Shown: positions 60,311 through 62,305 of the stretch, in pieces
How positions within the stretch are numbered: position 1 is the first letter of the stretch
How the letters are laid out: every line of letters starts with the position of its first letter
Assembly (NCBI RefSeq): GCF_000027125.1
Contig: NC_017626.1
Strand: one strand, 5' to 3'
Source: Escherichia coli 042
Lineage (GTDB): Bacteria; Pseudomonadota; Gammaproteobacteria; Enterobacterales; Enterobacteriaceae
DNA: 64,000 nucleotides
Notes under the pieces: model-generated
The model's input: the letters and a program-made list of their open reading frames with translations, nothing else
Told to the model about the DNA's origin: nothing
The model's database searches: none
Translations under genes and position numbers: made by a program

Positions 60311-60625
60311 TTACTGGAGTAAGAGTATGGACGGGATTGTTTTCCACCCATGCCCTTTCTGGAATCCCGGTGTCGCCGGAACATTCCCTTCACTGGTAGA
60401 GAAATACGAGCGATCTTTCTGTGCCACCATCGACTTACAGATAAATACGGTAGCTGTTCCGTTCTGCAAATCCCGGGCATACGCCGTGTTGGAATAAGGC
60501 ACAACGACCGGGCCTGTGGGCGGAGGAGGAGGGGACCAGCAGGGATCGGGAAATGCGCCAGCAGATTTCCCGTCAGACGCTCTGGAGCAGGCTTCCCGCC
60601 CGTTGATATAAACGTTAGTTTCCAT
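60311..60625 (-). CDS. PAAR-like (DUF4150-type) domain protein, 104 aa, probably a truncated T6SS effector N-terminus
   Basis: METNVYINGREA...FPDPCWSPPPPPTGPVVVPYSNTA...GTATVFI...KDRSYFSTSEGN matches the PAAR-like pattern I recall (FPDxC, PxPxPY.N, S.F..S.G[DE]); the ORF ends well short of any toxin domain. Confidence 0.5.
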   Translation of the reverse strand: METNVYINGREACSRASDGKSAGAFPDPCWSPPPPPTGPVVVPYSNTAYARDLQNGTATVFICKSMVAQKDRSYFSTSEGNVPATPGFQKGHGWKTIPSILLLQ

Positions 60626-61155
60626 AATGTGCTATCCGTGTACCCACTTTCCTTTAAATTAACTGCTGGCCCGGGAGGCTATTCAAACGCCATTGAATCA
60701 AAGAGGACATTCCAGGCATTACCATCATAAATAGCAGCTCCTCTGGAGCCACAAACCATCATCACTGTCCCATCGGGGGAAACATCAATTCTTTTACTTA
60801 AAACGGCCACTTCAGGAGGGACGGGTTTATGTTTTGCATGCATGGCGAGCACCAGTTTGTCATCTTCCAGTACCCAGATGCCATAATCACTGGCACACCA
60901 GAGACGTCCATCAAACCATCCCATGTCGAGGAAAGGCATGGTCATTCCACCATGCGTAATTTGTGTCCATTGCTCATTGCGACCCTTCCATATAGCACCG
61001 TCAAAATCAGCAATATAAACAAATCCGTCACCGGCACAGCAAACTGTGTACAGAAGTTTATTTGTCGGAAAAGGGAGTTTTTTCCATTGCTCACCATTAA
61101 AGTGATAAACGGTTCCCGTTCCACCCACTGCATACATATCTGACTCGGAAAAACC
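60601..61155. repeat. direct repeat, copy 1 (~555 bp, near-identical to 61751-62305)
   Basis: Covers the 3' ~475 bp of paralogue B plus ~80 bp downstream including the PAAR-like start; only a handful of mismatches by eye. Confidence 0.8.
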
Positions 61156-61719
61156 AGATAAATCCTGAAATAAGCTTCTGGACATCGACTCAGCCTTCCG
61201 TTCCAGGAATCCATCGGGAACAGGAATAGTTTGTGAAGCATCCAGCCAAACCTGATGATTAATTCGTTTATATATTCTTAACCCTCCCCCAATTGCATAG
61301 ACACTTGTTCCTACTCTGACTACCTTAATTATAGCTGTTCTCATGTCTGAGGATTTAGAAATAGGAATATCCAGATTATTTTCTCGTCCCTTGTATTCTC
61401 TGGTTTTGTAGCTTATGACTTCACAGTCGATATCAACTATAACTAATTCAGTTTGGGAAGGTGACCATCCAGCCGATATCGTTGGATAGCTCAAATTACC
61501 GAAAGACATCCCAAACACCCTGTTTTCAGGAGGGTTGTCAATAACTATTGATACCAGCTTGTGTTTAGGCATGTAATAGTCGTTGCCATATTCGATATGA
61601 TTTTCATCAATTTTTTCAATTAATAATAAGCCAACGCGGCCATGTTCAAAGCCATATGTACAATCATATACTTCAAAATTTTTAAAGGTTTTATCCCAAC
61701 GTTCTTGACTAATAATCAT
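60679..61719 (-). CDS. island paralogue B (346 aa), unknown function
   Basis: C-terminal ~158 aa identical to paralogue C, N-terminal half diverged; AAGGA SD. Confidence 0.6.
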   Translation of the reverse strand: MIISQERWDKTFKNFEVYDCTYGFEHGRVGLLLIEKIDENHIEYGNDYYMPKHKLVSIVIDNPPENRVFGMSFGNLSYPTISAGWSPSQTELVIVDIDCEVISYKTREYKGRENNLDIPISKSSDMRTAIIKVVRVGTSVYAIGGGLRIYKRINHQVWLDASQTIPVPDGFLERKAESMSRSLFQDLSGFSESDMYAVGGTGTVYHFNGEQWKKLPFPTNKLLYTVCCAGDGFVYIADFDGAIWKGRNEQWTQITHGGMTMPFLDMGWFDGRLWCASDYGIWVLEDDKLVLAMHAKHKPVPPEVAVLSKRIDVSPDGTVMMVCGSRGAAIYDGNAWNVLFDSMAFE

Positions 61720-61750
61720 TTCATTTCCTTAGTTATCACAATTATCATCA

Positions 61751-62305
61751 TAGCTATCTATAAACGTTAGTTTCCATAATATGCTATCCGTGTGCCCACT
61801 TTCCTTTAAATTAACTGCTGGCCCGGGAGGCTATTCAAACGCCATTGAATCAAAGAGGACATTCCAGGCATTACCATCATAAATAGCAGCTCCTCTGGAA
61901 CCACAAACCATCATCACGGTCCCATCGGGTGAAACATCAATTCTTTTACTTAAAACGGCCACTTCAGGAGGGACGGGTTTATGTTTTGCATGCATGGCAA
62001 GCACCAGTTTGTCATCTTCCAGCACCCAGATGCCATAATCACTGGCACACCAGAGACGTCCATCAAACCATCCCATGTCGAGGAATGGCATGGTCATTCC
62101 ACCATGCGTAATTTGTGTCCATTGTTCATTGCGACCCTTCCATATAGCACCGTCAAAATCAGCAATATAAACAAATCCGTCACCGGCACAGCAAACTGTG
62201 TACAGAAGTTTATTTGTCGGAAAAGGGAGTTGTTTCCATTGCTCACCATTAAAGTGATAAACCGTTCCCGTTCCGCCCACTGCATACATATCCGATTCGG
62301 AAAAA
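61751..62305. repeat. direct repeat, copy 2
   Basis: Covers the 3' part of paralogue C plus the downstream remnant of the PAAR-like start. Confidence 0.8.
61755..61778 (-). pseudogene. 7-codon remnant of the PAAR-like gene start (METNVYR-stop)
   Basis: Same upstream sequence and first codons as the 60311-60625 gene, then diverges into the paralogue B upstream region. Confidence 0.5.

Follow-up and report, generated by a model that had tools for sequence, protein, structure and literature searches.

The described system that appears closest to the locus reported here is the pef operon of Proteus mirabilis, in which the effector PefD combines a PAAR-like (DUF4150) domain with Phasin2 and Tox-GHH2 domains, and PefE, a predicted beta-propeller encoded directly after PefD, has been shown by experiment to confer immunity (Alteri et al., 2017; PMC5714391). 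A second copy, the orphan PefE2, has transposase and rhs remnants as neighbours and protects against the allele of another strain; PefE and PefE2 are 89% identical overall and differ mainly in their N-terminal halves, with chimera mapping placing specificity at amino acids (aa) 136-158 (PMC5714391). Here we describe an array of three predicted propeller genes, A, B and C, within a 64,000-nucleotide stretch of Escherichia coli 042 (assembly GCF_000027125.1, contig NC_017626.1; hereafter the window), in which the 3' halves of B and C form a near-identical direct repeat. We consider it probable that the locus, taken as a whole, is an orphan type VI secretion system (T6SS) immunity array, in which the junction blocks between neighbouring toxin–immunity cassettes were homogenised by recombination and the toxins were later deleted.

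Comparable mosaics are known from Vibrio cholerae, where orphan immunity genes in T6SS clusters outlast effectors that have been lost or displaced (Kirchberger et al., 2017; PMC5361080), and from Rhs and contact-dependent inhibition (CDI) systems, whose orphan modules, in the account of Koskiniemi et al. (2014) as cited in PMC5361080, follow a constant 5' region with a variable C-terminal toxin and an immunity gene. Pseudomonas aeruginosa Tse7/Tsi7 (PA0099/PA0100) belongs to the vgrG1b cluster (PMC9846239, PMC11883445). For Tox-GHH2, a 2012 catalogue of polymorphic toxins lists no immunity family, and propellers are absent from its immunity proteins (PMC3482391).

The locus resembles the pef operon in its effector architecture (PAAR-like and Tox-GHH2 domains around a helical or coiled-coil middle, as judged from the E. 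whittamii toxin, since the window holds fragments only), in a cluster composed of vgrG, DUF6484, DUF2169, thiolase-like, effector and immunity genes, and in a ~320-350-aa beta-propeller immunity protein that varies in its N-terminal half and has an orphan copy near transposase and rhs remnants; the likeness is one of architecture and published description. Unlike the pef genes, B and C join allele types of deep divergence to a homogenised tail, and every toxin gene of the E. coli array has been destroyed. The V. cholerae arrays are likewise mosaics of homologous and illegitimate recombination, with orphans proposed to protect against non-kin attackers (PMC5361080), but there whole immunity genes are exchanged and each array holds unrelated immunity families. 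What is distinctive in E. coli is that the breakpoint falls inside the immunity gene and that co-resident paralogues evolve in concert. With the Rhs and CDI modules, as far as the cited account describes them, the locus shares a conserved N-terminal delivery part, a variable toxic C-terminus with a linked immunity gene, 5'-truncated toxin remnants strung together with intact immunity genes, and direct repeats that allow recombination. It differs in having a PAAR-like (PIPY) delivery module with no Rhs/YD core or VENN motif, and in carrying its downstream homology within the immunity gene rather than beyond it; the toxins of the B/C array contain no YD repeats, and a separate YD fragment lies elsewhere in the island. 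Tse7/Tsi7 offers a DUF4150 and Tox-GHH2 effector in the same 'synteny type A' (with DUF2169 and a thiolase-like gene) and an immunity gene directly downstream. The Tse7 effector is 315-386 aa long, as against ~530 in B/C-type arrays, and no P. aeruginosa label stands among the 120 matches listed by a profile search with the B/C family.

A near-identical repeat inside genes B and C

A sequence-only reading of the window had reported that B and C, diverged towards their N-termini, end in near-identical direct repeats, and exact alignment bears this out: in an ungapped comparison at an offset of 1152, the two copies (Table 1) agree at 544 of 558 bases (97.5%), leaving 14 differences. They lie in direct orientation, 1152 nucleotides (nt) apart, and both form the 3' ends of minus-strand genes. 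The region had been placed correctly, at 60601-62305, with ends that are off by 6-11 nt; its extent, put at ~158 codons plus ~80 bp downstream, was roughly right, each copy consisting of codons 187-346 (160 codons), the stop codon and 72 nt of downstream sequence. On the 5' side of the block B and C are ~57% identical over 555 nt (236/555 differences), and past its other end identity is at the random level, ~25%. A maximum chi-square scan sets the breakpoint at gene nt 555/556 (chi2 = 256), which is 61164/61165 in B and 62316/62317 in C, and identity thus changes abruptly at a definable point inside genes that can otherwise be aligned. It is impossible for a repeat this long and this similar to have arisen by chance.

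The breakpoint has a structural counterpart. AlphaFold2 models B as a seven-bladed propeller (predicted local distance difference test, pLDDT, 94.9; predicted template modelling score, pTM, 0.93), in which the variable stretch contains blades 1-3 (residues 15-160) and the homogenised stretch blades 4-7 (residues 183-341). Identity between the B and C proteins rises from 52% in the N-terminal half to 99% in the C-terminal half; across the family the corresponding ranges are 50-87% and 82-98%. By its 5' half B belongs to an 'imm2' type, its closest relative being an E. whittamii gene (contig L003, 7744-8784), and C to an 'imm1' type, closest to another gene of that species (L003, 5038-6078) and to a C. 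koseri gene. Gene A, ~31% identical to B and C and 80% to a C. freundii gene (L006, 3908-4918), lies outside the repeat and has no share in it. All three open reading frames (ORFs) are full-length. Searches of A, B and C against Pfam and NCBIfam matched no family, the sole match, to Tectonin, being non-significant; a sequence search of the PDB found no relative of the propeller family, and Foldseek with the propeller model against the PDB gave only generic WD40, tectonin and G-beta propellers at template modelling (TM) scores of 0.5-0.6. Among betaproteobacterial relatives (Chitiniphilus, Ralstonia; P0037, P0038, P0040, P0041, P0043, P0049) some are ~445 aa long, one of them named 'ankyrin repeat domain-containing', which suggests that the propeller is fused there to an extra ~100-aa domain.

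Better conservation of the C-terminal half across the family is what would be seen if B and C were simply old duplicates, with no recombination, whose 3' halves are under stronger purifying selection. We regard this as extremely improbable, and it is refuted by the synonymous sites together with the non-coding DNA. Coding sequence holds 12 of the 14 differences, 11 of these being third-position synonymous changes and one a replacement (K214Q), and the 72 non-coding nt downstream of the two genes are 97% identical. Synonymous divergence (dS) between B and C, by the Nei-Gojobori method, is 0.116 over codons 187-346, with a nonsynonymous divergence (dN) of 0.003; over codons 1-186 dN rises to 0.43 and dS has reached saturation. 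The two E. whittamii genes show a similar step, dS falling from 2.5 in the 5' half to 0.015 over the last 106 codons. Near-identity at such positions means that the patchwork does not come from differential constraint. Between genomes, dS of the 3' half reaches 1.0-1.5: the C. koseri gene and E. whittamii imm1, which are of the same type, give 0.56 in the N-terminal half and 1.02 in the C-terminal half, and E. coli C and the C. koseri gene give 1.66 and 1.54. Same-type 3' halves are therefore as diverged as the 5' halves or more, which argues that no intrinsic synonymous constraint acts there.

Neighbour-joining trees partitioned by gene segment (500 bootstraps) are incongruent, the 5' part sorting by allele type and the 3' part by genome, and this too speaks against constraint. 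For nt 1-540, E. coli B groups with E. whittamii imm2 (100%), and E. coli C with E. whittamii imm1 and the C. koseri gene (96%). For nt 721-1041 the partners change to E. coli B and C (100%), E. whittamii imm1 and imm2 (99%) and the third and fourth C. freundii copies (81%). The intervening nt 560-720 place E. coli C with E. coli B and E. whittamii imm2 (97%). The homogenised tract begins near nt 556 in E. coli and near nt 735 in E. whittamii, and in C. freundii its start lies no later than nt 571. Downstream it runs on into the spacer in both Escherichia species, and in C. freundii it stops short of the stop codon; ends so different imply three independent events. The patchwork thus indicates intragenic recombination, and hence concerted evolution, that occurred independently in E. 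coli, E. whittamii and C. freundii. Since nt 560-720 of C are of B type, B is the likely donor of the 3' part of C. Polarised with outgroups, roughly 7 of the 14 differences arose on B and 4 on C, with 3 ambiguous.

Repeats of ~0.5 kb can mislead short-read assemblers, and the earlier reading had allowed for a collapsed or mis-joined assembly, in which one gene would have been duplicated or misplaced. The probability of such an artefact is, in our judgement, practically nil. The copies differ at 14 fixed sites and their 5' halves are wholly different; E. whittamii has both copies in synteny, with an intact toxin between them; and both copies of the B-C segment are complete in 152 of 153 island-bearing complete genomes, from many laboratories and sequencing platforms, so that assembly duplication is not the cause. 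The surrounding island occurs in ~3% of complete E. coli genomes, and 149 of 5426 carry the 4.1-kb array at 99.9-100% identity. Variants among the 153 island genomes are confined to IS5 or IS3 insertions and one near-total deletion. Neither single-copy nor triple-copy recombinants occur among the 153; variation in copy number, for which the earlier reading had suggested comparing related strains, is not seen in them, and neither is collapse of the repeat. In a base-by-base comparison of four strains, the few polymorphisms fall outside the repeat and off the 14 distinguishing sites, all of which are fixed in every sampled E. coli strain, with no sign of ongoing conversion. The recombination event therefore predates the spread of the island in E. 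coli. It is nonetheless much younger than the allele types themselves, and the description of it as recent holds relative to the age of the paralogues but not relative to the island's history in the species.

A candidate departure from the usual structure was rejected. The contig NZ_CP095532.1 (L002; 'plasmid unnamed1' of E. coli GN06156) is linear, 14.5 kb long, and carries a 90%-identical frameshifted cusS, a GHH2 fragment and the 5' half of C; its remaining 2.5 kb have no other match in E. coli. The GN06156 chromosome has a normal array, and we dismissed the contig as a probable error-rich assembly by-product.

Cassette arrays in relatives and the origin of the mosaic

A scan of genome contigs gave three loci, to which further arrays were added via exact-protein look-ups. 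The E. whittamii array (L003) is syntenic and intact, with the order DUF6484, DUF2169, thiolase-like gene, tox1, imm1, tox2, imm2. Intact toxins are ~530 aa long, with Tox-PAAR-like at the N-terminus, Tox-GHH2 at the C-terminus and a coiled coil between them (in E. whittamii tox2, Pfam 5e-25 for Tox-PAAR-like and 4e-6 for Tox-GHH2). Similar arrays occur in C. freundii (L006), C. koseri (L008), Salmonella (L010/L011) and a further genome (L007), with T6SS core genes upstream in L007 and C. koseri. The gene order in these relatives, TssE, VipA/B, Hcp, VgrG, DUF6484, DUF2169, thiolase-like, toxin, propeller, is the synteny type A of DUF2169/DUF4150 clusters (PMC11883445). In every array examined, each Tox-GHH2 gene has one propeller gene 6-20 nt downstream.

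The tandem cassettes of E. whittamii are 93-100% identical across one continuous junction block, which begins ~370 nt before the end of the propeller gene, crosses a 57-nt spacer and extends ~640 nt into the next toxin gene. The cassette core (the last ~500 nt of the toxin and the first ~550-700 nt of the propeller) is 52-72% identical. Over nine toxin–propeller pairs, the more two toxins diverge in their C-terminal 100 aa, the more their propellers diverge in the 5' part (Mantel r = 0.82, p = 2e-4); for the 3' part the correlation is much weaker (r = 0.45). The four cassettes of C. freundii L006 (1700-12300) show a further regularity, in that every toxin but the first has a copy of the thiolase-like 3' end ahead of it (Table 1). 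The duplicated unit thus begins within the accessory gene, which accounts for the thiolase-like fragment after A in E. coli.

On the reading that we favour, the ancestral array would have been a series of tandem cassettes, each a PAAR-like/Tox-GHH2 effector gene followed by a 346-aa propeller gene, with neighbours sharing a junction block (propeller blades 4-7, spacer and 5' part of the next toxin) and separated by variable cores (the nuclease end of the toxin and propeller blades 1-3). Homologous recombination between the junction blocks of one array would homogenise them, in its simplest form by non-reciprocal gene conversion, and in E. coli B-type sequence would have overwritten C from codon 187 on, leaving far apart the 5' halves that probably determine specificity. 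The same process would have run independently in E. whittamii and C. freundii, with other tract ends. Illegitimate deletions later destroyed the three E. coli toxin genes, one of them trimming the repeat to 558 bp, and the three putative immunity ORFs were kept, presumably as protection from toxins delivered by other bacteria. The 558-bp repeat is what was left of a ~1-kb junction block once tox2 was lost, and it ends at the 1550-bp deletion that took away this toxin gene.

Several observations weigh against this account. The link of B and C to a toxin comes from gene context, and the searches for a family model and for a solved sequence relative found none. Proteus or P. aeruginosa labels are absent among the matches listed in four family searches: a profile search of a 5.8-billion-protein set (55 members in the profile, 120 matches listed), an exhaustive hidden Markov model search that covered 1.84 billion representatives and gave 837 clusters at E <= 1e-30, a look-up by cluster for ten ~320-aa members, and an Enterobacillus-seeded search. 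Genomes with two 346-type copies numbered three in this comparison. Between E. coli and E. whittamii, same-type 5' halves have dS of 1.1-1.4 and 3' halves 0.3, a depth of 5' divergence which implies that exchange with outside DNA happened too. Finally, the B-type nt 560-720 of C are also predicted if unequal crossing-over between junction blocks first gave a tandem duplicate of a whole cassette and the core of one copy was then replaced by an imported allele, the shared 3' half being a relic of the duplication.

This last scheme, in which conserved sequence on either side, the PAAR-like 5' region and the propeller 3' half, would anchor the exchange, is a competitor that we judge unlikely. It gives the same tree incongruence, the flanks that it needs do exist, and the contrast in dS just described implies import of foreign alleles; the island is horizontally acquired and low in G+C, and propeller 5' halves vary together with toxin C-terminal ends, as one unit. 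Yet E. coli and E. whittamii share the order of types (imm1-type upstream, imm2-type downstream), so the two-type arrangement probably predates their split, and the 3' halves were homogenised separately, with different tract starts. Duplication and import would have to have occurred in parallel in each lineage, whereas conversion takes one event per lineage; the same order of types with different tracts makes conversion within the array the simpler account. The suggestion of gene conversion or unequal crossing-over in the sequence-only reading thus stands as regards recombination, for which dS and the incongruent trees speak, but conversion of the 3' part and replacement of the 5' part after duplication are not fully separable.

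A tentative extension, which we hold to be possible but incline against, is that the junction block, with its propeller 3' half, spacer and toxin 5' part, is a maintained recombination anchor, and that the core is swapped, duplicated or deleted as one specificity cassette. If so, the immunity protein would consist of a specificity half that can be exchanged and a scaffold half that stays constant, and the array would have a diversity-generating layout with its downstream homology arm inside the immunity gene. The Rhs, CDI and V. cholerae modules would differ from such a split layout in that their whole immunity gene is variable.

Toxin remnants and the putative immunity role

The three genes lie in an island of ~11.5 kb between nfrB (49663-51900) and cusS (63565 onward), whose G+C content is 33-45% as against 50-55% for nfrB and cusS; the island is a decayed, low-GC, horizontally acquired segment. 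On the minus strand from cusS the order is GHH2 remnant, C, tox2 stub and 30 nt, B, PAAR-like fragment, A, followed by the thiolase-like fragment, a remnant of a fourth propeller gene, an ISAs1 split by IS1, an Rhs/YD fragment and a SUKH-3 gene (Table 1). All three PAAR-like/Tox-GHH2 effector genes of the island are destroyed, and the three propeller ORFs are intact.

Table 1. Positions of the array genes, repeat copies and remnants. Coordinates are those of the window except in the last row.
Feature	Position	Strand	Description
Gene C	61831-62871	(-)	346 aa; paralogue of B; putative immunity protein
Gene B	60679-61719	(-)	346 aa; predicted 7-bladed beta-propeller; putative immunity protein
Gene A	59269-60279	(-)	336 aa; third propeller paralogue, different subfamily
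Repeat copy 1	60607-61164	(-)	B codons 187-346 (blades 4-7), stop, 53-nt spacer, toxin start; first 19 nt of PAAR-like toxin gene, ATGGAAACTAACGTTTATA
Repeat copy 2	61759-62316	(-)	C codons 187-346, stop, spacer, 19-nt stub of deleted toxin gene
Tox-GHH2 remnant	62897-63196	(-)	99 codons; 5'-truncated toxin; Pfam 3.7e-6
tox2 5' stub	61759-61777	(-)	19 nt; ORF reads METNVYR* (7 codons)
tox2 3' end	61729-61758	(-)	final 30 nt of deleted toxin gene
Tox-PAAR-like (DUF4150) remnant	60311-60625	(-)	3'-truncated toxin; 91 codons; Pfam 7e-11
Thiolase-like (PRK06147) T6SS accessory gene, 3'-end remnant	58865-59176	(-)	precedes toxin in intact arrays
Fourth propeller gene, short (60-nt) remnant	58770-58830	(-)	blade-5 motif FPTN..L.SVCC; cut by ISAs1 end
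66-codon ORF	56527-56727	(-)	weak YwqJ-like deaminase match, E = 0.01
SUKH-3 immunity gene	56063-56524	(-)	Pfam 6e-12
YD-repeat (Rhs) fragment	55776-56045	(-)	
Thiolase-like repeat families, C. freundii L006	1962-2261, 5184-5483, 11639-11938		

The remnants show how each toxin was lost. DNA homology of the GHH2 remnant to E. whittamii tox1 reaches 63245, which is the boundary between the island and its cusS 3' flank. The PAAR-like remnant matches intact toxins over its first 272 nt only (60354-60625) and then gives way to unrelated sequence. At the junction 61759/61758, 1550 bp are missing relative to E. whittamii (L003, 6155-7704), and all but 19 + 30 nt of tox2 are gone; at the DNA level, 0 of 5426 complete E. 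coli genomes retain at least 80% of tox2. A 3-nt microhomology at this junction had been considered and was dismissed on base-by-base comparison with E. whittamii, in which none was seen. At the start of the GHH2 remnant, a homopolymer of eight G (C8 on the plus strand; 63176-63184) varies by +/-1 nt among strains (L013, L014) and so alters the length of the annotated pseudogene ORF; real slippage and sequencing error are both possible.

Across the deletion junction, at 61747-61776 on the minus strand, a -35-like TGGAAA and a -10-like TATGAT stand 18 nt apart, ~28 nt upstream of the B start codon. There is only a hint here that the deletion might have made a promoter for B: the match is weak (9/12), and in a scan of the region for promoters and terminators such promoter-like sites were rarer than in shuffled sequence.

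From their gene context, B, C and A are probably orphan immunity genes. We assign them this putative role because of their position, their one-to-one pairing with toxins, their retention past toxin loss and their co-variation with the toxin, and for B and C the PefE precedent supports it by analogy. It is improbable, in our view, that the propellers serve the effector as accessory or adaptor factors instead, or have some unrelated role, and the recombination analysis would be unaffected if they did. The family matches no catalogued immunity family, and synteny-type-A clusters do hold several accessory genes of obscure role (PMC11883445), as this alternative would have it. It sits poorly with the single propeller gene that directly follows each Tox-GHH2 gene, with the survival of the propellers after the toxins were lost, and with the co-variation of their variable half and the toxin nuclease end; and in P. 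mirabilis PefE, of the same position and fold, is a proven immunity protein (PMC5714391).

Elsewhere in the island, 55776-56727 on the minus strand holds a second, unrelated orphan toxin/immunity remnant, made up of the YD-repeat fragment, the SUKH-3 gene and the 66-codon ORF. The transposase gene of the ISAs1 family (H-repeat) at 56712-58625 is interrupted by IS1 (insA/insB, 57219-57916), and a second, intact ISAs1 copy lies at 54561-55697; the ~3-kb segment between the two is missing from other E. coli such as CB6837 (L001). The stretch 52000-54000 has 33% G+C and three small minus-strand ORFs (52237-52773, 52838-53266, 53294-53740), which had no NCBIfam match and are labelled hypothetical proteins in RefSeq.

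Meaning for toxin and antidote arrays

A mosaic tail of this kind is an expected feature of toxin/antidote gene arrays, and the locus is a clean natural example of how such arrays evolve, three toxins having been deleted with their putative antidotes surviving. The breakpoints fall at the border between variable blades 1-3 and constant blades 4-7, which leads to the prediction that blades 1-3 set toxin specificity, in agreement with the chimera mapping of PefE in P. mirabilis. For E. coli, our results suggest that ~3% of strains, including strains of sequence type ST69 from humans and poultry, may be protected against the Tox-GHH2 effectors of Escherichia, Citrobacter, Salmonella and Kluyvera neighbours. 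Genes annotated as 'WD40/YVTN/BNR-like repeat-containing protein' between nfrB and cusS are thus probable T6SS immunity genes.

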